64,000 bases of DNA. It comes from Deltaproteobacteria bacterium. Its GTDB lineage: Bacteria; Myxococcota_A; UBA9160; SZUA-336. The position numbers were made by a program, and so were the translations under genes. Shown here piece after piece: positions 6,972 to 63,335 of this stretch. Within the stretch, counting starts at the first letter, position 1. Every line of letters starts with the position of its first letter. The stretch lies in assembly GCA_004356455.1 (NCBI GenBank), contig SMWZ01000147.1, positions 128 to 64,127 on the forward strand. The letters are read 5' to 3'. A model generated the notes under the pieces. It was not told the DNA's origin. It was given only the letters and a program-made list of their open reading frames with translations, and did no database searches.

Positions 6972-7029
6972 GCCTTACCTCCAGCACGAGTCTGCCATAA
7001 GCGGAGCGTGAGCAACGCTGCGGGTGGGC

Positions 7030-7839
7030 TCAGGAGGCGCAGTCGTCGGACGGAGGCCAGTGGAGCAGGACGTGGGCGTAGCGGCTCGAATCCAGGTCGG
7101 CGTGGCTGCGGTCGAAGTAATCCTGCCAGAAGCCACTGATCTGTCTGGCCATCTCCGCCGACTCCGCCGTCACCGCCGACACGTAGACGCATACGCCGGA
7201 GAGGTCGGGGATCAGGCCCTTTAGCTGCAGCTCTGCCAGCAGCTCCTGCTTCTTCTCCGGGGTCCAGGAAATCCGGTCAAAGCGATAGGGCGGATAGTCG
7301 ACGATCATGTCCGACATCAGGATCAGAATCTTGCGTCGCTCCGTGGCTTGGAAGAGCTTCTTGGCCATGAGCAGCGAGCTGAAGATGTCGGTCTTGTTGC
7401 TGGAGCCAGCCTTCAGCAGCATCTCCGGCAGCTGGGCTCGGATCTTCTCCCTGAGCTCGTCTGCCTTCCTCTCGCTCGCCTTCAGCTCGCGTTCGTGGCG
7501 CATGGTGTTGTCCAGCCATCTGTTGAACTCGGGCTGCGGCGGAAAGGTCTCATCCAGCAGAGCATGGAAGCTCGTGAGGGTCTCCTCGTTGATGGGGGCG
7601 ACCAGGATGCGATCTCCGGCCGCGAGCGAGGGGATGATCGTGTCTGCGAAGTCATGCTCGATCAGGGCCCGATTCTCGGCGCCCATGCTCCCCGAGAAGT
7701 CCACGAAGATGATGATCTCGTTGCCAACATTCCTCGTGGACTCCGCGGACACGAAGCAGCCCGTCAGGAGAGCCCCTGCCAGCGCCAGCACGGAAACGCC
7801 GGCTACGAGCTGCTTGAGCGCAAGGGACGTGGACGTCAT
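7030..7839 (-). CDS. vWA-domain lipoprotein with complete MIDAS motif
   Basis: Signal peptide plus lipobox (ALLTGC). IIIFVDFSGSM (DxSxS), NKTDIF (Thr) and LILMSDMIVD (Asp). The start overlaps the upstream stop (ATGA at 7836-7839). Confidence 0.7.
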   Translation of the reverse strand: MTSTSLALKQLVAGVSVLALAGALLTGCFVSAESTRNVGNEIIIFVDFSGSMGAENRALIEHDFADTIIPSLAAGDRILVAPINEETLTSFHALLDETFPPQPEFNRWLDNTMRHERELKASERKADELREKIRAQLPEMLLKAGSSNKTDIFSSLLMAKKLFQATERRKILILMSDMIVDYPPYRFDRISWTPEKKQELLAELQLKGLIPDLSGVCVYVSAVTAESAEMARQISGFWQDYFDRSHADLDSSRYAHVLLHWPPSDDCAS

Positions 7840-8849
7840 CCGCTTGACTGACTCCCGGAGCTGATGTCGACCTCAGGCCACCACTCCAGCGACTTGTACT
7901 CCGGATCCTTCCTGAAGGCGGGCGGCGGCAAGAAGCTGCGGAAGCGCACGTTGGTGCTGCGGTACAGGGCGATGCGTTGACTGGAGAGCGCTCTCGCCCG
8001 CTCAATCCGGCTCTTCGCTCCCTGGATCTCCCCGTTGAGCTTGGTTCCGAGCAGCAAGCGCTGCTTGCGAACCTTGTTGGCGTGCTTATCCAGGAACATG
8101 AGGGAGCTGTGGCTGGAGTCCAGCTTCTCGTCCTGATCATGGGACAGGTAGGAGCTCACCGTCGCTGCGCAGAACACCAGGGCGTTGAGAGCGAAGAGGG
8201 CGTAAGCCAATCCGTCCGCGCTCGCCAACATGGGATCTGCCCCGGTGGCCGCTTGAGCCTCGATATAGCCCTGGCGCATGCTGCTGATCGCAATCAGGGC
8301 CGCAGCCGCAGAAACTGGAGTGATGAATCCGACCACGATGTTTCCGGCTCTTGGCGGAACCGACTGCCTCAGGTGAATGCCGATGAAGAGCCCGAGCAGG
8401 GGGATGGTGATGGCGAGGGTGGATGCCATGATATAGGTCAGGAATTCCGACTCGCCGAAGAGCCGGAACACGATGGTGTTCAGGGGGAATTCGCCGATCG
8501 CCAGGAAGATGATCAGCGCCACGTGATACTTGTAAGGGAATCGACTGTTGAAGTCCCGCCCCAGCTCGGCTTTTCTCGCCTTGTAGATCTTGCCCGCCGC
8601 CTGAAGGCGGCTCTCGAGATCGTTGTAGCGTCCCTGATAGGCCTCGTAGAACGGGCGCAGCTTGGCGATCCGCAGCGAGGCTTTCTCGTAGATCAGCTGG
8701 ACTGCCTGCTCCCCGTGGGCGACCAAGGCCTGCTCGAACTGGGCCGGCTGGTACGACCCCATGTCGGGGATATTCTTCTCGCCGTCCATCTGGCCTTCGA
8801 GCTCGATCCGGCGCTCGTTGGTGAACGGACTGGAGCCCTTTCCGAACAT
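7836..8849 (-). CDS. hypothetical 4-TM membrane protein with N- and C-terminal coiled-coil-like segments
   Basis: Four hydrophobic helices (about aa 110-235) are flanked by heptad-like charged regions. I recognise no family. Confidence 0.6.
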   Translation of the reverse strand: MFGKGSSPFTNERRIELEGQMDGEKNIPDMGSYQPAQFEQALVAHGEQAVQLIYEKASLRIAKLRPFYEAYQGRYNDLESRLQAAGKIYKARKAELGRDFNSRFPYKYHVALIIFLAIGEFPLNTIVFRLFGESEFLTYIMASTLAITIPLLGLFIGIHLRQSVPPRAGNIVVGFITPVSAAAALIAISSMRQGYIEAQAATGADPMLASADGLAYALFALNALVFCAATVSSYLSHDQDEKLDSSHSSLMFLDKHANKVRKQRLLLGTKLNGEIQGAKSRIERARALSSQRIALYRSTNVRFRSFLPPPAFRKDPEYKSLEWWPEVDISSGSQSSG

Positions 8850-8872
8850 CGCTTCTCCCTGCCGCCGACGGC

Positions 8873-9190
8873 CTAGGTATCTACTTCGTGCTTCTTGAGC
8901 GTGGAGGCAAGCTCGTCAATCAGGAACTTCACGCTGTCCAGCACCGCGTCCTCCGTCGAGGAAATGTCACCCACCCGTCTCATCATGACCTGATAGTCGG
9001 CCTTCAGCTGCGACATCGTCTGGTGGATGCGATCCAGTGTCTGCCGCAGCTCGTCCCGCTCTGACTTGAGAGAGCCCCAGCGTTTGAGCAGCGCCTCCAG
9101 CTGCTTGCGCATCTCTCCCGAGTGCTCGACCAGCTCCCGGTACTCAGTGATCGCCTCGAGGATTCGTTTGACCTCGCCATCGTTCAGCAT
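8873..9190 (-). CDS. hypothetical small coiled-coil protein
   Basis: Highly helical, charged sequence. Start chosen at ATG 9190 (MLNDGEV), preceded by AGGAGGGTGGGAG. The tracked ORF extends to 9229. Confidence 0.55.
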   Translation of the reverse strand: MLNDGEVKRILEAITEYRELVEHSGEMRKQLEALLKRWGSLKSERDELRQTLDRIHQTMSQLKADYQVMMRRVGDISSTEDAVLDSVKFLIDELASTLKKHEVDT

Positions 9191-9421
9191 CTCCCACCCT
9201 CCTAAGTTCGCGGGCCGCATGAGCTGCATCTGTTCGGGGAACTCGATGCCGTCGGCGCCCCTAGAAGATCAGCTCTCCGGGGGGTTATCGACGCGAGATG
9301 CGAGCGACTTGACGCTCGTCCCGGGCCCGGCAGAGCCCTCGCCGTTGCAGGTCGATGCAAGGCTCAGCTGGGTCGACTTTGGGACAGGAGCGGAAGCCAG
9401 CGCGCTGCTGCGCGCACAGGG

Positions 9422-10462
9422 CTACTGGCGGATGTCGGTGAGGATGCCGACGTCGCGCCAGCTCTGCTCGGTGCGCTCGGTGATCAGGCCCAGGCGCATC
9501 AGGTTCGGCACGACAGTGTGCATGTAGGCCTCGCTGTTGAGTTCGGTCCAGTTGGGGAGCTTGTGCGCGGTGCGCAGCAGCTCGTCGGGATCGATGTCGT
9601 ACTTGGGCCCCAGCGTCTGGAGCATGTCGAGCTGCTGATTCGCGTTCAGGGCTTCTAGTACAGCGAAGGCCCAGTCCTCCATCTGGTGCATCTTCTCCTC
9701 GCTCGCTTCGCGCACGCAGCGTCGCATGGTCAGGACGCCAAAGGCGGCGTGACGCGACTCGTCCTGCTCGACGCGTTTGAGGATCTCTCTGAACAGCGGG
9801 TTGAGCGTGTTCGAGCGCATGAAATCCATGATGCCAACGGCTATGCCCTCGAAGATCGTTTGCATCCCCAGGCACTTCATGTGGTAGCCCTTGACGCTCA
9901 GCAGCTCGTCCAGCAGGGTCTTCAAGGTTGCGCCGATGGGGTAGATCGTTCCCATCTTGCTGCTCAGGAAACGCGCAAACACCTCGTTGTGGCGCGCCTC
10001 ATCGTAGACCTGGTTGGAGGCGTACCACTTCTCGTCGGTCGTGGGGCAGAGGTTGGTAAGCTGGCCGCAGAGCTGCAGCGCCGCCTGCTCGCCGTGCAGC
10101 AGCTGCGAGATCACATAGCAGACCTCGTCGAACACGGCGGCCTTCTGCGTTGCCTCGTCCTTGCCCAGCATGCGGCAGGCGCTGCCGAGCAGGGTTGCTT
10201 CCGGTCGCATCAGCCAATCGTCTTTGGAGACGGGCGTATCCCAGTCGAGATCGGTCGCGGCGTTCCACTGGTGCTGCTTGCCCTTCTCGTAGAGTGCGCG
10301 CAGCTCCGCTACCTCGCTCCCGTACTCCCACTGCCAGTTGACGTTCGTGGCAGCGTCCACCTCCAGGTGATTGCGCAGACGCTCGATCTCGTCGGTATCG
10401 ACGAAATCGATCAGCTCGAATCCATCCAGCATGCGACGGTGGTCCGGGATCAGCTTCTCCAT
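9422..10462 (-). CDS. ferritin-like di-iron carboxylate protein (AurF/diiron-oxygenase-like)
   Basis: Two E...ExxH pairs: HGEQAAL / DEARHNEVF and FEGIAVG / QDESRHAAFG. Start ATG 10462 has an AGGGAGG RBS. It lies 13 nt downstream of the tetR stop. Confidence 0.7.
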   Translation of the reverse strand: MEKLIPDHRRMLDGFELIDFVDTDEIERLRNHLEVDAATNVNWQWEYGSEVAELRALYEKGKQHQWNAATDLDWDTPVSKDDWLMRPEATLLGSACRMLGKDEATQKAAVFDEVCYVISQLLHGEQAALQLCGQLTNLCPTTDEKWYASNQVYDEARHNEVFARFLSSKMGTIYPIGATLKTLLDELLSVKGYHMKCLGMQTIFEGIAVGIMDFMRSNTLNPLFREILKRVEQDESRHAAFGVLTMRRCVREASEEKMHQMEDWAFAVLEALNANQQLDMLQTLGPKYDIDPDELLRTAHKLPNWTELNSEAYMHTVVPNLMRLGLITERTEQSWRDVGILTDIRQ

Positions 10463-10475
10463 CGGAAAGACCTCC

Positions 10476-11129
10476 CTAGGCGGGCTCGGCCGCGAGCCCA
10501 TGCTCGAGAAACAGAAAGATGTGCTGTTTGCGACGGCGTACCTCCGCCGCTGAGTACACGGGGTGCTGGAGCAGGTCATCTCCAAACTCCCCCGACGCGA
10601 AGTGGTAGACGCTCATGCCGATCAGCGTCTGAAGCGTGTGCGGCACCGAGACGGGGCGGATCTCGCCCGCTGCAATGCCCTCCTTCAGCGCGCGCGCCAC
10701 GCGACTCAGTATGCGTTCCAGGATTCCGTTCAGATGCGCCCGGTCCTTGCGGTCGACCACGTCGCCCTCGAACAGCGTCCGCAGAAGCAGCGGTGCGTAG
10801 GTGGGGTTCTCGGCCAGGGTATCGACCACCACGTCCACCCAGTTCCGGAGCTTCGCCAGTGCCGACTCGGGGCGCTCTTGTACGGCCTCGAGGCGCTCAT
10901 CCATCCGCGTCAGGATGCGCTCGAGCACCGCCACATAGAGCGAGAGCTTGGTGGGAAAGTGGTGGAAGAGGGAGGACTTTCCCAGCCCGACCTTTTGGGC
11001 CACCTCGCGCAGGCCGACGCCGCTGAAGCCGCGGGCCGCAAACAGCGCCTCGGCGCTGTCGAGGATCTTCGCGCGGCTCGAGGGACCGGCCTTGGTCACG
11101 GGCTTGGGGGTGGGATTGTCAGCGCTCAT
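10476..11129 (-). CDS. TetR/AcrR-family transcriptional regulator
   Basis: N-terminal HTH: ILDSAEALFAARGFSGVGLREVAQKVGLGKSSLFHHFPTK. Confidence 0.9.
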   Translation of the reverse strand: MSADNPTPKPVTKAGPSSRAKILDSAEALFAARGFSGVGLREVAQKVGLGKSSLFHHFPTKLSLYVAVLERILTRMDERLEAVQERPESALAKLRNWVDVVVDTLAENPTYAPLLLRTLFEGDVVDRKDRAHLNGILERILSRVARALKEGIAAGEIRPVSVPHTLQTLIGMSVYHFASGEFGDDLLQHPVYSAAEVRRRKQHIFLFLEHGLAAEPA

Positions 11130-11158: not shown

Positions 11159-11234
11159 ACGGGAAGCTTATCGGCTGCGTTTTCTGAGGTCAAGCGCCGG
11201 CTGGGCCTGCTTCCGGTATGCTCCGCGCCGCCCC

Positions 11235-13034
11235 ATGACAGAGAAAGCCATCTCCGCCCTGGCCGCCGCGCTGGACCGCGCGCTGGTGGGGCAGGAGGAC
11301 GCCAAGACCGGCGTGCTGCTGGCCCTGCTTGCGCGCGAGCACGCCTACCTCGAGGGCCCGCCGGGAGTGGGGAAGTCCCGGCTGGCCGAAGCCGGCGTGC
11401 ACGCCGCCAGCGGGTCGCCGATCCAGCTCGCCCTGCACCGCGACACGCGGCTCCAGGACCTGGTGGGGCCCGTGCAGCTGCGGCGCGAGCCTTACGGGGA
11501 AGGGCAACGCCTGCGGCACCAGACCTTGCCGGGACCGCTGCTAGGGGCGGAGCTGGTGCTGCTGGATGATCTCGATCGGGCCCCGGCGCAGGCGCTGGGT
11601 CCGCTGCTCCGCATCCTTGGCGAGCGCTGCTGGCAGGGTCAGGCGTTGCCCCTCGAGTCCGTCATCGCTACCGGGGGGCCCGAGCGGATCGACGCCTATG
11701 CGGATCCACTCGAGCCCGGCTCACTCGATCGCTTCGCGATTCAGGTGCGCATGCCAGGCTTACTCTACGCGCAGCGCTGGGACTGCGCGCGCGTGCTGCT
11801 CGAGGGGAGGGTGGAGCTCTCGCCGGGACCGGTCATCGACCTCTGTACACGCAGACGGCTGCAGGAGCAGGCGCGGCGCTTACCGATGCCGCGCTCGGTC
11901 CAGCGGGCATACGTGGACCTGGTGCTACGGCTGCAACGGTTTGCGGCCGGCGGCATGCCTCTCAGTGATCGGACCTTCGGCCGTGCCGCGCTGCGCGTGC
12001 TGCGGGCGCACGCGCTGCTGCGCGGTGCCTCGCGGGTGGAGCGCACGGATCTGCGCGCGCTGCGCTACATGCTCGGGCGCCGCCTGCCCGACCTGACCCG
12101 CGACCAGTTTGAGGAGCTGCTGGCGGAGGCCGGGCGACCCGCCGCGCCATGGCTGGGGCCTTCCGCCGCCGCTGCGGGTGCGGCCTGGGGCGCGGCCGGC
12201 GCGGCCGGCGCCGAGGCCATCCGGGCCCGCGCGGGCCGGGTGCGCAGCTGGGAGCTCCAGCCGGGCGCGCGCGCTCCGGGGATGGACGAGGCGCAGGTGG
12301 AGCGGGTGCTGCGTGCGCTCGAGGGACGCTTCGAGCGTGGCTACGCGGGCCTGGAGGAGGATCCCGGGGGCTCGCCCCGCAGCTATCGGACACTGCGCGG
12401 GCTGGACGAGGTCTTCGATGCCGACCCGGTCGAGCTGATCGGCTACCTGGACGGGACGCGCCCCGGCCTGCCGCGCAGCTTCCGCCGCGAGCGCAGACGG
12501 GCGGGCGGCCAGGTCGCGCTCCTGCGTGACGTCTCGGCTTCGATGGAGGGAAGGCTCGGCCGCTGGGCGGGGCGGGTGGTCGCGGGCCTGGTGCGTGCCG
12601 GGGCGCGCCGACGCATGCGCATCGGCTACGTAGAGTTTAATCACGATGCCCGCCGCTTTCACGCCGGCGGGCGCTTCTTTCATCGCCGCTACACCAGCCT
12701 GCTCGAGCTGGCCGCGTCCTCGCGGGCGGCCGGGCGCACCAGCTACCAGGCGCCACTCCAGGTTGCGCTGAACGAGTTCCGCGCACGCGCCGGGCGCAAC
12801 CGACACATTGTGCTGTTGACGGACGGGGTGCCGGTGCTGGGCGACCCCGAGGTGCGGCGCGAGCGCACGCTGGCGCGGCGCCTGGGCGTGCAGGTGCACA
12901 CCGTGTTCCTGGGCTTGGGCGAGCACCCGCCCGTGCTGGACGCGATCGCACGCGAGACGGGAGGGCTCTGCTTCGTCGGGCAACCCAGGCCCGGCGGCGG
13001 CTTGCGGGTGCTCGGGCTGGGCGAGGGAACATGA
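11235..13034 (+). CDS. MoxR-like AAA+ domain fused to a C-terminal vWA domain (BchD-like architecture)
   Basis: GPPGVGKS Walker A, LLDDLDRAP Walker B (DD rather than DE), an Ala/Gly-rich linker, then a vWA domain with DVSASM (DxSxS), GRTSY and LLTDG. True start is ATG 11235. The tracked ORF from 10563 is antisense to tetR. Confidence 0.8.
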   Translation: MTEKAISALAAALDRALVGQEDAKTGVLLALLAREHAYLEGPPGVGKSRLAEAGVHAASGSPIQLALHRDTRLQDLVGPVQLRREPYGEGQRLRHQTLPGPLLGAELVLLDDLDRAPAQALGPLLRILGERCWQGQALPLESVIATGGPERIDAYADPLEPGSLDRFAIQVRMPGLLYAQRWDCARVLLEGRVELSPGPVIDLCTRRRLQEQARRLPMPRSVQRAYVDLVLRLQRFAAGGMPLSDRTFGRAALRVLRAHALLRGASRVERTDLRALRYMLGRRLPDLTRDQFEELLAEAGRPAAPWLGPSAAAAGAAWGAAGAAGAEAIRARAGRVRSWELQPGARAPGMDEAQVERVLRALEGRFERGYAGLEEDPGGSPRSYRTLRGLDEVFDADPVELIGYLDGTRPGLPRSFRRERRRAGGQVALLRDVSASMEGRLGRWAGRVVAGLVRAGARRRMRIGYVEFNHDARRFHAGGRFFHRRYTSLLELAASSRAAGRTSYQAPLQVALNEFRARAGRNRHIVLLTDGVPVLGDPEVRRERTLARRLGVQVHTVFLGLGEHPPVLDAIARETGGLCFVGQPRPGGGLRVLGLGEGT

Positions 13035-13996
13035 ACGCGGGGCTCGAGGGTCTACGAAAAGTTCTCGACGAGCACGTCGTGGGGCACGAGGAGGTGAAGC
13101 AAGCGCTGCTGCTCGGCCTGGCCTGTCGCGAACACATCTATCTGGAGGGACCTCCCGGCAGCGCCAAGACGCGCATGGCGGAGGTGGTCGCACGCAGCTC
13201 GAGCCTAAGCTTCTTCTTCTATCAGCTCCACCGGGATACGCGCCTGGCCGAGTTGCTGGGCGATGTGGTCCTCGAGCGCCGGCCGTTGGCCGAGGGCGAA
13301 GGAGAACGCATCCATCAACGCATCGAGCCCGGCGGTATCCTGACGGCGGAGATCTGTGTCCTGGATGACATCTCGCGCGCGCCCGGCGAGGCGCTCAACG
13401 TGCTGCTGAGGATCCTCAACGAGCGAAAGTTCGGCGCCGATTCGATTCCCCTCCTCAGCGCCATCGCCACCAGCAACCCCATGCGCGATGAGTACTACAA
13501 CGAGCCCCTGGACCCTGCGAATCTCGACCGCTTCGCGCTGCAGCTGCGGGTGCCGGGCTTGATCCAGTCGGGCGCGAAGGAGGAGGCGCGTGCCCTGGTG
13601 AGCCGCTTTGCAGCCGGTACGGTGGTCGAGCAACCCGAGCTCCGAGCGGTGGCCAGCCGCCGGACCTTCGACGACCTCTACGCCACGCTCCGCAGGGTTC
13701 AGGTTCCGAGCGAGGTCAAGGAAGGCCTGCTGGAGATCTTGCAAGTGCTCGTGGTCGAGTATGGTTGCAATGAGACGAACTCGCTGCTCACCGATCGCAG
13801 CTTTCTGGTGAAGGCGGTCAAGCTGCTGCAGGGTCGCGCGGCGCTCGCGGGTCGGGAGCGGGTGGAGCTGGCGGACCTGGACGTGCTGCGTTGGATGACG
13901 ACCTTCCGCGTCGCGGAGGAGGTCCACGAGAAGGTTCCCGAGCTGATTGCCCGCGTGGTCGGGAGTGCCGGTGCGCGCCCTGCCCGCGACAGCTAA
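13031..13996 (+). CDS. MoxR-family AAA+ ATPase, paralogous to the N-terminal half of 11235-13034
   Basis: GPPGSAKT Walker [10 protein letters not shown] Walker [11 protein letters not shown] sensor region. It aligns block by block with the upstream gene. ATGA start/stop overlap at 13031-13034. Confidence 0.85.
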
Positions 13997-15760: not shown

Positions 15761-16924
15761 CTAACCGGTCTGCTCGCGATCCTGACTCCCGCGACGAATG
15801 AACGCGGGTACGTCGTACTCCTCCTCGAAAGGCGACATGAAATCCTGGTCGTGGCGCGCGCTGGACGCGCTCAAGCCCGTGAGGCTCTGGCTCCCGGCCT
15901 CCTCCTGTCGCGCAGCGTGGATGGGCGTAACGTTGCCCGGAATGGTTTCGGAATCGCCGCGGCGACGCCGGCGCCTGGGGTCCGAGAGTCCGGTTGCGAT
16001 CACCGTGACGCGGATTTCCTCTTCCATTCCCTTCTGGACGACTGAGCCGAAGATGATGTTGGCATCCGCATGCGCCTGCTCCCGCACCAGCATGGCGGCC
16101 TCGTGAATCTCGTGCAGGGTCATGTCGGGCCCGCCGGTGATGTTGATCAGGATGCCGTGTGCGCCCTCGATGGAGAGCTCCTCCAGCAGTGGGTTCGAGA
16201 TGGCGGCCTGAGAGGCCAGGGTGGCCCGGTTCTCGCCGCTGGCCCGTCCCGTCCCCATGAGCGCCATCCCCATCTCGTTCATCACGGAACGTACGTCCGC
16301 GAAGTCCAGGTTGATCATACCGTGCACCGTGATCAGGTCGGAGATGCCCTGCACCGCGTTCAACAGCACCTCGTCCGCCAGCTCGAAGGCCTCTAGCAGC
16401 GAGGTATTCTTGGGCACCATCTGCAGCAGGCGATCGTTGGGGATGGTGATCAGGGTATCGACCACGTCATGCAGCACATCGATCCCTTCCTCGGCCTGCC
16501 GGCTGCGCACGGAGCCCTCGAACAGGAAGGGCTTGGTCACCACGGCGATTGTCAGCGCTCCGACCTCCTTCGCAACCTCGGCAACGACGGGCGCACCCCC
16601 GGTACCGGTGCCGCCGCCGAAGCCTGCGGTTATGAAGACCATGTCGGCATTGGCGAACTCCTCGCGCAGCCGGTCACGCGCTGCGTCCGCCGCCATCCGG
16701 CCGATGTTCGGATCGGCGCCGGCGCCGAGCCCTCGTTCCCCCAGCTGCACCTTCTTGGGAGCCAGATTCTCGGCTAGCGCCTGGGCATCGGTGTTTACGG
16801 AGAGAAAATCCATTCCGGTTAACCCCGACCTGATCATTGTATTGATGGCGTTTCCGCCGCCCCCGCCTACGCCTACTACCTTGATCCGGGCACGAGGCTC
16901 ACTGTCCTGATCCAACTTAATCAT
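15761..16924 (-). CDS. ftsZ: cell division protein FtsZ
   Basis: [30 protein letters not shown] and the C-terminal DVPAFIRR peptide. Start chosen at ATG 16924 (MIKLDQD), after GGGGGGGAAAGAG. The tracked ORF starts at TTG 16963. Confidence 0.95.
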
Positions 16925-16979
16925 CTCTTTCCCCCCCAATCGTGATTTTTTTCGCATGCTCAAAGTTCCTTCGAGCTCT

Positions 16980-18209
16980 TCAGCTCAGTTCACCTATGAA
17001 CCACTCGCGCATACGTGCGCGAACCTTCCGGAAAGTCGAGCCGTCGTACACGCGGAAGCGCGGCTTGGCTCTTTGCTTCGAACCGTAGAGCGCGAGCCCC
17101 ACGCTGGTGGCGAACTCGGGCCCCTGTACTCGGTCCACGAGTCCGCCCACCCCGCGTGGGATCCCACGTCGCACCGGTAGCTCGAATACCTCCTCCGCGA
17201 GCTCCGGCAATCGCTCCAGCGAGCTCGACCCGCCGGTTACGACCACCCCGGACGGAATCGAGTTAAGCAGGTCTGCGCGAGCCAGCTCATCGCGCACGAG
17301 CGTCAGGATCTCCTCGATACGGGGCTCGAGGAACTCGGAAAGCATCTTGCGGCTGATCTCGCGCGGCGCGCGGCCTCCGACGCTGGGCACCACGAGCAGC
17401 TCATCGGCGGCCAGGAAACGTGGAGCCGCACAGCCAAAGCGTCGCTTGATGCGCTCCGCCTGCTCGAAAGGGGTGCGTAGCCCCACAGCCGCATCGTTGG
17501 TCAGGTGGTAGCCGCCGAGCGAGAGCACGGCCGTATGCTTGATGGAGCCGTCCTGGAAGACGGCAAGATCGGTGGTGCCGCCGCCCATGTCGATCAGCGC
17601 CACGCCCAGCTGTTTTTCGTCGGGGGCGAGCACGGCTTCGCTCGAAGCCAGCGGCTCGAGTACGATATCGATTACGTTGAGTCCGGCGCGGTTGCAGCAC
17701 TTGATGATGTTCTGTACCGAGGTCACCGCCGCGGTCACGATGTGTACCTTCGCTGTGAGGCGAACGCCGGACATGCCACAGGGCTGCTTGATCTCATCCT
17801 GGCCATCGATCTCGTATTCTCGGGGGATCACGTGAATGACCTCGCGGTCCGCGGGAATCGCGATCGCCTGTGCTTGCTCGATCACCCGTTTGACGTCACC
17901 CGGCTTAACCTCATCGCCCTTGATGGCGATCATGCCGATCTCGTTGCGTGCCTCGATATGTCCACCGGCGATGCCCGCGTAAACGGAGTTGATCTCGCAG
18001 CCCGCCATGAGCTCCGCTTCATCGATCGCCTTGCGAATGGAGTCCACGGTTGCGTCGATATCGATCACGACCCCTTTGCGCAGGCCTCGCGACGGGGAAC
18101 CTCCGACCCCGATGATGTCGACAGTCTCGCCCGCGACCGTCGCGACCACCGCACAGATCTTGGTGGTCCCGATGTCGAGGCCTACGACCAGTTCTTCATG
18201 ACGAGCCAT
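16980..18209 (-). CDS. ftsA: cell division protein FtsA
   Basis: Actin-like ATPase motifs: [33 protein letters not shown]. Confidence 0.95.
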
Positions 18210-62621: not shown

Positions 62622-62790
62622 TAGCGCGTTAGCGGCGAGCACAGCTCGCCTGCGCGCACGGCGCCGGACTTCGTCGGCGCCTCTGTAGCGCGTTAGCGGC
62701 GAGCACAGCTCGTCTGCGCGCACGGCGCCGGACTTCGTCGGCGCCTCTGTAGCGCGTTAGCGGCGAGAAAAGCTCGCCTGCGCGCATGGC
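62622..62790 (+). repeat. tandem array of a 64-bp double-hairpin element: 62622-62685, 62686-62749 (1 mismatch), and a partial diverged third copy from 62750
   Basis: The unit is TAGCGCGTTA-GC-GGCGAG-CACAG-CTCGCC-TGCGCGCAC-GGCGCCG(G)AC-TTC-GTCGGCGCC-TCTG. It starts 1 nt after the PQQ-dehydrogenase stop, and the third copy forms the 3' end of ORF 62757-63335. Confidence 0.9.
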
Positions 62791-63335
62791 GCTTGTGCCT
62801 CCTTATCGGGTGCCCGTGACGACGAGAACACGCTGAGCGAAGCAGCGGTCCCCCAGTGCTCCCCTATCGCAGCGGCCATCTCTCCCAGGGCCTCGAGCTC
62901 AATACCGATCGGATAATCGGGTGCTCGCGTCATGCGGGCGAAAGCACCGAAGGCCACGAGCGCCGTGATGCGGTCGGGATGGGTGGTGGCAAACAATGCG
63001 CTCAGGGGTCCACCCTCGGAGATGCCGAAGAGCACGGCTTGCTCACTACCCGTTGCGCTCATGACAGCGTGGATGTCGTCCATCCGCGGCTCATAGCTGG
63101 GCGCACCGGCGACCCAATCCGAGAGGCCCGTGCCGCGCTTATCGAAGGTGATCACGCGGGAGAAGGACGCGAGCCTCTGAATGAAGCGTGAGTAGCCCGG
63201 CAGCTCATGGAAGAACTCGACGTGAGATACCAAGCCTGGGACGACGATGAGGTCCCGCGGGTCCTCCCCCACAACCTGGTACGCGATGCTCAGCTCGCCG
63301 CTCTTTGCGTACCGGGTCGTGGGCAGCTCCTGCAT
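62757..63335 (-). CDS. alpha/beta hydrolase, apparently C-terminally truncated (possible pseudogene)
   Basis: TRYAKSGELSIAYQVVG, FDKRGTGLSD and GISEGG (nucleophile elbow). Only 192 aa, ending inside the 64-bp repeat, with no Asp/His part of the fold. GGAAGGAG RBS. Confidence 0.6.
   Translation of the reverse strand: MQELPTTRYAKSGELSIAYQVVGEDPRDLIVVPGLVSHVEFFHELPGYSRFIQRLASFSRVITFDKRGTGLSDWVAGAPSYEPRMDDIHAVMSATGSEQAVLFGISEGGPLSALFATTHPDRITALVAFGAFARMTRAPDYPIGIELEALGEMAAAIGEHWGTAASLSVFSSSRAPDKEAQAPCAQASFSRR

Follow-up and report, generated by a model that had tools for sequence, protein, structure and literature searches.

The window analysed here comprises 64,000 nucleotides from a Deltaproteobacteria bacterium (GenBank assembly GCA_004356455.1, contig SMWZ01000147.1, positions 128 to 64,127 of the forward strand) and contains a three-gene operon, referred to below as the trio or A-B-C. 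The trio encodes a soluble helical protein (A), an inner-membrane protein (B), and a lipoprotein with a von Willebrand factor A (vWA) domain (C). By the tests applied it falls outside every described family or system, and only C fits a known fold. Its function may be of a known kind, for example that of a membrane effector or channel. The genes were first noticed in a preliminary description made from the sequence alone, whose coordinates and shared orientation were borne out when the open reading frames (ORFs) were read: A (8873–9190, 105 aa), B (7836–8849, 337 aa), and C (7030–7839, 269 aa) all lie on the minus strand.

Gene layout and protein architecture

The operon has its own upstream region, as described earlier, in the form of a 231-bp spacer (9191–9421, minus strand) ahead of A. 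This spacer carries the motif GCGTCAAGTCG (discussed below) and a GGAGGG ribosome-binding site at 9197–9202, 6 nt ahead of the ATG of A. We place the start of A at 9190 and not at the longer ORF start at 9229, because all homologues, which are 103–105 aa long, begin with ML(N/K/S)D and because GGAGGG lies 6 nt upstream of this position. The stop codon of B and the start codon of C overlap in an ATGA at 7836–7839, also as reported, and from this overlap the two genes are predicted to be translationally coupled. A downstream hairpin had been proposed at about 6995–7015; it did not survive a shuffling test, in which 142 of 200 shuffles fold equally well or better (z = +0.5). Because the hairpin is not significant, the 58-bp spacer between C and a short-chain dehydrogenase (SDR) gene (6972–7029, minus strand) was placed outside the module. 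The gene downstream of the trio is different in every other genome compared. No terminator-like, promoter-like, or sigma-70 consensus site was found in a scan around the operon, and an Rfam scan of the operon region gave no relevant match.

The architecture suggested earlier, a soluble helical A, a four-transmembrane (TM) B with flanking cytoplasmic helices, and an exported lipoprotein C, agrees with hydropathy and with AlphaFold2 models of B and C, which were built as monomers from 49- and 51-sequence alignments, respectively. A contains no hydrophobic segment and is predicted to be an all-helical, coiled-coil protein of the cytoplasm. Searches of Pfam, NCBIfam, and the Protein Data Bank (PDB) with A returned only generic coiled-coil matches, and PADLOC only coiled-coil noise (E ≥ 1e-3).

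B contains four hydrophobic segments (residues 110–128, 140–158, 171–189, and 213–231). Of its short loops, the first and third are acidic and the second is basic, which by the positive-inside rule predicts that both termini face the cytoplasm. The model is all-helical (predicted local distance difference test, pLDDT, 76), with long helices at residues 37–96 and 239–303 flanking the 4-TM core. No match to B was found in Pfam, NCBIfam, or PADLOC. Foldseek returned no match at E ≤ 1e-3 for the model of B, the best being TolQ/ExbB chains and the AhlB/SmhB toxins (E 0.02–0.1, TM-score 0.17–0.30).

Searched as profiles against PDB sequences, A, B, and C returned only coiled-coil noise, a PPR repeat artefact, and non-significant matches to alpha2-delta. 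None of the PADLOC-DB v2 defence models is significant for any of the three. The labels “MtrG” and “prefoldin subunit 5” that JGI attaches to some homologues were rejected as coiled-coil or TM artefacts. The earlier statement that the first two proteins belong to no recognisable family thus holds across Pfam, NCBIfam, PADLOC, PDB sequences, and, for B, Foldseek. The systems named earlier as possible identities (Bat, Ter, Wzz, and known defence families) were also compared, and none matches the trio. A Wzz-like polysaccharide co-polymerase was rejected for B, which has four TM helices instead of two, coiled coils that the positive-inside rule places in the cytoplasm, and no Wzz Pfam match.

The structural matches raise the possibility that B forms an ExbB/TolQ/MotA/ZorA-like pentamer in an ion-driven 5:2 stator-type motor. 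TolQ/ExbB are among the weak top Foldseek matches (E 0.02–0.1, probability 0.8–0.94), and B shares with stator proteins a helical inner-membrane build, long cytoplasmic helices, and buried polar residues (essential in stators), one of them acidic. However, the TM-scores are only 0.17–0.30, no match reaches E ≤ 1e-3, and there is no MotA_ExbB Pfam match or other significant similarity. The topology also differs, since the TM helices of B, four in number, are contiguous and a long helix lies at each terminus, and the single-TM partner with an Asp that stators require is missing, as the only hydrophobic segment of C is a cleaved, non-conserved lipoprotein signal. We therefore regard a stator motor as very improbable. 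The tripartite alpha-pore-forming toxins AhlB/SmhB/MakA also show some resemblance to B (Foldseek E 0.06–0.15, TM-score 0.24–0.30, probability ≤0.97), but B lacks a secretion signal and has four full-length TM helices. The likeness of B to both groups probably reflects generic similarity among long-helical models.

C has a single N-terminal hydrophobic segment (residues 12–30), of the cleavable type, without Asp and not conserved in sequence, and a lipobox, LLTG-C28. By hydropathy and alignment, the signal peptide and lipobox occupy residues 1–28 (7756–7839, minus strand). The lipobox fits the pattern [LVI][ASTG][GA]C, C28 is invariant in the core clade and retained in 27 of 33 distant C proteins, and lipidation is predicted. 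The vWA domain would accordingly lie in the periplasm. The metal ion-dependent adhesion site (MIDAS) consists of the DxSxS motif (D47, S49, and S51; 7687–7701), T150 (7390–7392), and D177 (7309–7311), all on the minus strand and located by alignment. These five residues are invariant across 51 core sequences, and among the 33 distant C proteins D47 is retained in 32, S49 in 30 (Thr in two more), S51 in 31 (Thr in one more), T150 in 31 (Ser in two more), and D177 in all 33.

The model of C (pLDDT 79; predicted TM-score, pTM, 0.76) gave 110 Foldseek matches in the PDB at E ≤ 1e-3, and the top 50 of these 110 are all vWA-fold proteins, such as integrin I domains (probability 0.99–1.00). Together with the invariant residues, this upholds the earlier description of C as a vWA lipoprotein with a complete MIDAS. 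In Pfam, VWA_2 remains under threshold (23.4 bits, cut-off 27) and covers residues 126–177 only. The C profile gave no significant vWA match among PDB sequences, with alpha2-delta-1 aligning at the MIDAS region at E of about 0.9. Judged from the model, C is therefore assignable to vWA at the fold level only. Its peculiarities are a 35-residue inserted helix (112–146) and a unique C-terminal SRYAHVLLHWPP motif.

Conservation of the trio and the B-C pair in type III CRISPR-Cas loci

Hundreds of homologues were found for B and for C at 46–99% identity, all of them unnamed or “hypothetical” and none with a Pfam domain (at least 279 for B). They come from Nitrospirota, Methylomirabilota (Rokubacteria), metagenome-assembled genomes (MAGs) of Myxococcota or “Deltaproteobacteria”, and one MAG labelled Acidobacteria. 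The cluster containing TDI97512.1, a protein from a “Deltaproteobacteria bacterium” MAG, has a representative with which the C of the window shares 99% identity. Wherever the contig allows, the order and orientation A-B-C are kept, in 45 species-representative genomes and eight further contigs spanning Nitrospirota, Methylomirabilota, and Myxococcota. Co-occurrence of the three genes, which the preliminary description had left to be checked, is thus very strong. The arrangement is also kept in a hot-spring Nitrospirota/Leptospirillia clade whose B proteins are only 33–36% identical and whose A proteins only about 30%. A third-round homologue search with a broad alignment recovered the core family only.

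Searched against 1.84 billion representative proteins, the B profile revealed a much larger superfamily: 669 clusters match at E ≤ 1e-3, and 352 do so at E ≤ 1e-10. The family thus comprises at least 669 clusters at 50% identity, with thousands of metagenomic copies. Ten superfamily members were tested, including fusions of 770–900 aa, and none contains a Pfam domain. In PADLOC, five of five distant B proteins and four of five distant C proteins had no match, and the fifth C had a non-significant one (E = 0.009). Across 76 metagenome loci with distant members, B is directly followed by a C homologue in nearly all cases where enough downstream sequence is available. These loci yield 63 C matches against 74 B matches, and those lacking C are mostly short or truncated contigs. 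Hhalign identified the proteins downstream of B in L054, L056, and L058 as C homologues with 99.6–100% probability. The genes of the pair are often translationally coupled. A, on the other hand, is confined to the monophyletic A-B-C clade (the core loci and L112 and L125), and the small ORFs that precede B in distant loci show no relationship to it. The B-C pair without A is therefore the conserved core of the larger family.

The residues that define the superfamily were mapped from alignments and from column counts in 40 distant B representatives, and they fall into three regions on the minus strand. The N-terminal motif (residues 15–47; 8709–8807) contains G19, D22, G23, P28, and F38-E39 and has the signature G-x2-D-G-x4-P. 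The 4-TM core (residues 107–236; 8142–8531) includes the TM1 signature E-[FILV]-P-L-N-x2-V-F-x2-F-G-E, in which E120, superfamily-invariant and in the middle of TM1 (8490–8492), and N124 are membrane-buried. It also carries F128, G157, R192, and N222, and a periplasmic loop FGE(S/P)E with E133 and E135. The C-terminal motif (residues 292–316; 7902–7976) reads Y296-R297-x2-N300-x-R302-x-R304 and continues to P309 and F312, the superfamily signature being Y-R-x2-N-x-R-x-R followed by P, alongside the invariant G157, R192, and N222. Retention in the distant set is nearly complete for E120 and N124 (39/39 each), G157 and R192 (40/40 each), N222 (39/40), Y296 (40/40), and R304 (39/40), and is about 36/37 for G19, D22, G23, and P28. 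The periplasm-proximal residues conserved across the family are F128, E133 (30/39), T138, R192, Y195, and N222.

The genomic context of the pair was surveyed in 40 dereplicated groups, chosen through one peptide pattern (E[FI]PLN...) and annotated with heuristic gene calls. Of these, 22 are informative, that is, lack A, have at least 5 kb of sequence, and are dereplicated at 70% B identity. Ten of the 22 are linked to type III CRISPR-Cas. In L054 a Cas10 palm domain and RAMP protein are encoded immediately downstream and a phage integrase upstream, and L056 has three RAMPs, Csx19, and a CARF protein upstream on the same strand, with a HEPN/MNT pair downstream. In L080 a CARF-2TM protein directly follows C (E = 7e-33) and precedes a fusion of reverse transcriptase (RT) and Cas1 and long CRISPR arrays, while L091 contains RAMPs, B-C, a CRISPR array, and RT-Cas1. 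In both L099 and L108, no more than 1 kb separates C from a CRISPR array, and a CARF-like or RAMP protein is also encoded. RAMPs are found in L116 and L127, the former also with a reverse transcriptase and the latter with a gene for a CARF-TM protein immediately ahead of B.

In the remaining two groups, B-C is directly followed by an NrN-type DHH hydrolase (PADLOC model “DHH_CorA”, E = 1e-83) and then by a CorA-like protein (L115, 3088–5560; L132, 3260–5565), Pfam-confirmed in L115 and recognised as a BLAST homologue in L132. The short contig L121 also encodes an NrN homologue directly after C (1638–2366). From these matches, the NrN and CorA pair is identified as the cassette of type III-B systems associated with S-adenosylmethionine-AMP (SAM-AMP), and the order B-C-NrN-CorA may represent a new arrangement of it.

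Arrays near distant B-C pairs (L080, 14572–16645; L081, 11202–12990; L091, 10667–10925; L099, 4048–4234; L108, 4119–4427) are genuine CRISPR arrays, have 36–37-nt repeats with a period of 69–75, and lie within 1–5 kb of B-C. Several of the repeats show the typical ending ATTGAAAC or CTGAAAC. Among 133 close neighbours of B-C pairs, the commonest families are RAMPs, RT, Cas1, and CARF-TM. In a neighbour-joining tree of B, CRISPR-linked members occur in at least five separate branches, and the A-B-C clade is sister to a group with L054 and L056. A match labelled RT-Cas1 in L071 covers the RT part only and was not counted.

Membrane proteins are already known from such loci. CRISPR-associated CorA occurs with NrN in type III-B systems that signal through SAM-AMP (PMC11229360, PMC12255297). 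Like B, it sits in the inner membrane, has an extended helical region in the cytoplasm, and lacks a nuclease domain, and each family seems to include members with and without a CRISPR link. Distant B-C pairs also adjoin NrN (L115, L132, and L121) and a CorA-like protein. However, CorA has two TM helices and a GMN motif where B has four and an E-x-P-L-N motif, with no sequence or fold similarity between them. B also has an obligatory periplasmic vWA lipoprotein partner, and the clade of the window is not CRISPR-linked.

Cam1, Csx23, Cam2, and Cam3 are CRISPR-associated membrane effectors from type III loci, with the membrane as their presumed target (PMC11229360). Cam1-like CARF-TM proteins lie directly beside B-C in L080 and L127. 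Unlike B, in which none is detectable, these effectors have a soluble sensor domain (CARF, one that binds cyclic tetra-adenylate, or REC). They also lack a periplasmic vWA partner, and no PADLOC model matches B or C, CRISPR-linked members included. Published surveys of CRISPR accessory genes (PMC11229360, PMC6546367, PMC10910872) do not mention a pair consisting of a 4-TM protein and a vWA lipoprotein.

Other relatives show further associations. The B-like fusions P0308, P0321, and P0356 have an exported-looking N-terminal extension of about 600 aa without a Pfam domain, which may be periplasmic. One B-like fusion gene adjoins SIR2_2 and helicase genes, followed by a 238-aa gene that is possibly a C homologue. 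In two loci without cas genes (L078, 4239–6803; L106, 11079–13523), a large HerA/TraG-like ATPase (DUF87, TrwB_AAD_bind) is encoded two to three genes after B-C, which could be a recurrent link to conjugative or defence elements.

Genomic surroundings and base composition of the trio

Around the trio itself, flanking genes vary by locus and are mostly housekeeping, including gyrAB-serS, rpsB-tsf with Mla, queA-tgt, ispDF, and recBD. When all flanking ORFs of the core clade were clustered, no fourth recurrent gene emerged. The possibility that the trio sits in defence islands, raised in the preliminary description, is not borne out by the roughly 50 clade loci. No B homologue was found in plasmid and phage collections, nor in IMG/VR viral contigs with two profiles.

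These surroundings are compatible with a housekeeping envelope or ion-homeostasis complex, such as a channel for divalent cations or protons whose metal-binding subunit is periplasmic, or a sensor of envelope integrity. Some distant relatives would then have been co-opted by CRISPR systems, much as canonical CorA stands to CRISPR-associated CorA. The neighbourhoods are non-syntenic (in the window they include RecQ, ferredoxin, NDK, and ftsAZ), and third-position codon usage is native (see below). The trio is usually present in one copy per genome, identity across phyla is 55–70% for B and 60–72% for A, no cas genes lie near the clade, and plasmid, phage, and viral collections are empty of homologues.

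Yet the range is narrow, about 45 of 185,579 species representatives, all of them MAGs, and none of the family members found comes from a cultured organism. With so narrow a range, high identity between phyla resembles the outcome of an accessory module spreading laterally more than it does a core function of ancient date. In two loci, insertion sequence-type transposase genes lie near the trio, and the sister groups of the clade in the B tree include CRISPR-linked members. A housekeeping complex is a possible explanation, but one that we consider rather unlikely.

Foreign or accessory origin had been proposed from base composition. The raw G+C content (GC) of the trio is indeed low (0.59–0.62, against a window gene mean of 0.669), but the accompanying claim of many A/T-ending codons fails. 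Third-position GC (GC3) is 0.82 in A, 0.83 in B, and 0.86 in C, against 0.828 ± 0.039 over 54 window genes. The deficit is limited to codon positions 1 and 2 (0.47–0.50 against 0.59 ± 0.05) and therefore reflects amino-acid composition, not foreign codon usage. The neighbouring AurF-like gene has the same profile of low GC at positions 1 and 2 and normal GC3. Although the high identity to homologues in Nitrospirota and Methylomirabilota suggests that the genes were once transferred laterally, no boundary of the integrase, tRNA-linked, or repeat kind was seen beside the trio in the window, and mobile-element collections contain no homologue. The trio as a recently acquired foreign island is thus largely refuted, and we hold it to be most unlikely.

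In the window, the trio is bordered on one side by genes for RecQ, inositol monophosphatase, ferredoxin, a PGPGW protein, and the SDR, and on the other by those for an AurF-like di-iron protein, TetR, MoxR-vWA, MoxR, NDK, and ftsZ-ftsA. The last two genes (15761–18209, minus strand) form the end of a division and cell-wall cluster 7–9 kb away, which indicates that the trio sits in a core chromosomal region. The AurF-like/R2-like di-iron oxygenase gene adjoins that of the TetR regulator (9422–11129, minus strand). Since the listed TTG start of the former (10585) overlaps TetR by 110 bp, its true start is probably an internal Met (MEKLIPD, near 10462).

A MoxR-vWA fusion (bpMoxR/AAA_5 and VWA; 11232–13034) and a MoxR ATPase (13031–13996) follow on the plus strand. 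Both match the MoxR domain of “MoxR-vWA-beta-propeller ternary systems”, and by this similarity the pair is a possible separate conflict system dependent on nucleoside triphosphates.

With these MoxR genes 2–5 kb upstream, the trio might be thought part of a MoxR-vWA (Bat/aerotolerance-like) chaperone system, and Bat/aerotolerance proteins, TerY, and MoxR-vWA are, like C, bacterial vWA proteins with a MIDAS. Their vWA domains, however, are TM-anchored or cytoplasmic and are accompanied by MoxR, DUF58, TPR, or PP2C and kinase. C is exported, whereas MoxR proteins are cytoplasmic, and the MoxR genes of the window lie on the opposite strand beyond the unrelated AurF-like and TetR genes. In other genomes they show no linkage to the trio. 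MoxR, DUF58, and TPR genes do not recur in the flanks of about 50 trio loci, MoxR or DUF58 lying beside the trio in none of them, and the partners of the TerY-P triad (PP2C phosphatase and Ser/Thr kinase) are absent from the operon and its conserved flanks. Membership in such a chaperone system is thus extremely improbable.

Several features may bear on regulation. The motif GCGTCAAGTCG lies at about 9300–9330 on the minus strand, roughly 100–120 nt upstream of A, and is common to the window and the Myxococcota-type loci L005, L007, L009, and L010. It could be a promoter, an operator, or the product of mere conservation among related genomes. A sigma-54 consensus was seen upstream of A in one locus only. 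In Nitrospirota loci, A is preceded by a small gene whose product ends in QENRSLHGEIVY.LKRAV (L003, 490–669; L008, 6435–6686). The same gene is present in L012, L014, L015, L016, and L019 and missing from the window. It shows weak likeness to Arc/ribbon-helix-helix proteins (AmrZ, E = 0.03; EndoAI antitoxin, E = 0.34) and may encode a dedicated repressor of the trio. Far from the operon, an intergenic tandem repeat (62622–62792) consists of 2.7 copies of a 64-bp GC-rich unit at 95% identity.

Candidate functions of the A-B-C complex

We tentatively favour, at slightly less than even chances, the reading that the trio forms an undescribed three-layer envelope complex built around a gated membrane protein, B, which is here uncoupled from CRISPR. 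Of the steps in this proposal, complex formation between B and C is the likeliest, and conduction of ions is the least likely. B would be an inner-membrane protein that is probably oligomeric. As helix 37–96 leads into TM1 and helix 239–303 leaves TM4, B is predicted to have a stalk in the cytoplasm that is some 60 residues, or roughly 9 nm, long, and the N-terminal (19–28) and C-terminal (296–312) motifs would meet at its membrane-distal tip. Given the Tyr/Arg/Asn-rich motif there, the tip is a plausible input site for a ligand or nucleotide signal or for a partner protein. E120 and N124, both buried in the membrane, suggest that the B oligomer contains a route for ions or protons. Together with the periplasm-facing R192, N222, and, in most members, E133, they form a pattern that would fit an ion- or proton-conducting gated pore.

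On the periplasmic side, the strict retention of the MIDAS in C suggests metal-mediated docking onto an acidic group of the periplasmic face of B, with E133 or E135 as candidates. In voltage-gated Ca2+ channels, the MIDAS of the alpha2-delta subunit makes contact with an acidic channel residue that lies in an extracellular loop. C shares its vWA fold and complete DxSxS...T...D MIDAS with alpha2-delta and integrin I domains, and we propose that it docks on B in an alpha2-delta-like geometry. The comparison has limits, as C is a small bacterial lipoprotein with a 35-residue insert, the SRYAHVLLHWPP motif, and a VWA_2 match below threshold. Once docked, C could act on B as a cap, an anchor, or a regulator.

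Within type III CRISPR-Cas loci, B-C would most likely act on the membrane as an ancillary module, in a role like that of CorA or Cam1, or alternatively might work jointly with the adjacent CARF-TM or CorA proteins. The clade of the window would have lost the CRISPR linkage and gained A amid mostly housekeeping surroundings. A would probably bind the stalk of B or its tip as a built-in regulator, and in this clade it would replace or modulate the input of B.

A bolder form of this proposal takes B-C as the first example of an undescribed class of two-compartment membrane machines, in which a gated inner-membrane pore has its input at the tip of the 9-nm cytoplasmic stalk and is controlled on the periplasmic side by a MIDAS-vWA lipoprotein. 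It would serve as a new type III ancillary effector in many lineages, possibly responsive to nucleotides without CARF or SAVED, and A-B-C would be a CRISPR-free derivative in which A replaces the CRISPR-derived input. We consider this form rather unlikely.

Several observations weigh against the envelope complex that we favour and its link to CRISPR. Neither the 53 core-clade loci nor the 64-kb window gave any match to queries with cas, CARF, and NrN, so that a defence role may not carry over to this clade, and about half of the informative distant loci lack CRISPR genes. No recognisable sensor domain (CARF, SAVED, or the CorA cytoplasmic domain) was found in A or B by Pfam, NCBIfam, or PADLOC, and B has no significant structural match (best E about 0.02, TM-score 0.2–0.3). 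Its model is a monomer of moderate confidence (pLDDT 76, pTM 0.53) and so lends no support to an oligomer or to pore formation. Of 39 distant B proteins, 9 have another residue in place of E133 and most have one in place of E135, so the proposed MIDAS ligand is not universal. The 55–70% cross-phylum identity, mostly housekeeping neighbourhoods, and native codon usage fit a housekeeping complex equally well.

The trio could also be a stand-alone, CRISPR-independent abortive-infection or defence module, in which A or the stalk tip senses infection, B depolarises or permeabilises the inner membrane, and C is its periplasmic partner. The CRISPR-embedded relatives agree with this idea, as do the fused relative beside SIR2_2 and helicase genes, the phage integrase and HEPN/MNT pair beside others, and the gain of A in exactly the clade that lost the cas linkage. 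Against it stand the lack of any matching PADLOC model, clade neighbourhoods that are not defence islands, and sequence conservation unusually high for a defence gene, and we consider it improbable.

As regards the envelope complex that we prefer, the earlier suggestion of an undescribed envelope-spanning module stands insofar as the trio is self-contained, conserved, and without a family. Its supposed foreign or accessory origin does not, and a role in defence is backed only indirectly, through distant relatives in type III CRISPR-Cas loci, and not for this clade. Nor do the 53 clade loci and the window, which contains no CRISPR array, have the adjacent cas genes or arrays by which ancillary effectors of type III systems are recognised.

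B and its obligatory vWA lipoprotein partner thus constitute a large unnamed family without a Pfam, NCBIfam, PADLOC, or PDB relative. The B-C pair is a concrete candidate for a new membrane-acting type III module and bears on how type III systems act on the membrane without a nuclease. Comparison of the CRISPR-free clade, with its extra cytoplasmic component, and the CRISPR-linked pairs could show how the module is gated. Should a housekeeping role emerge instead, the trio would still represent an envelope complex new to science in Nitrospirota, Methylomirabilota, and Myxococcota, environmentally important phyla in which it is found in uncultured genomes only.

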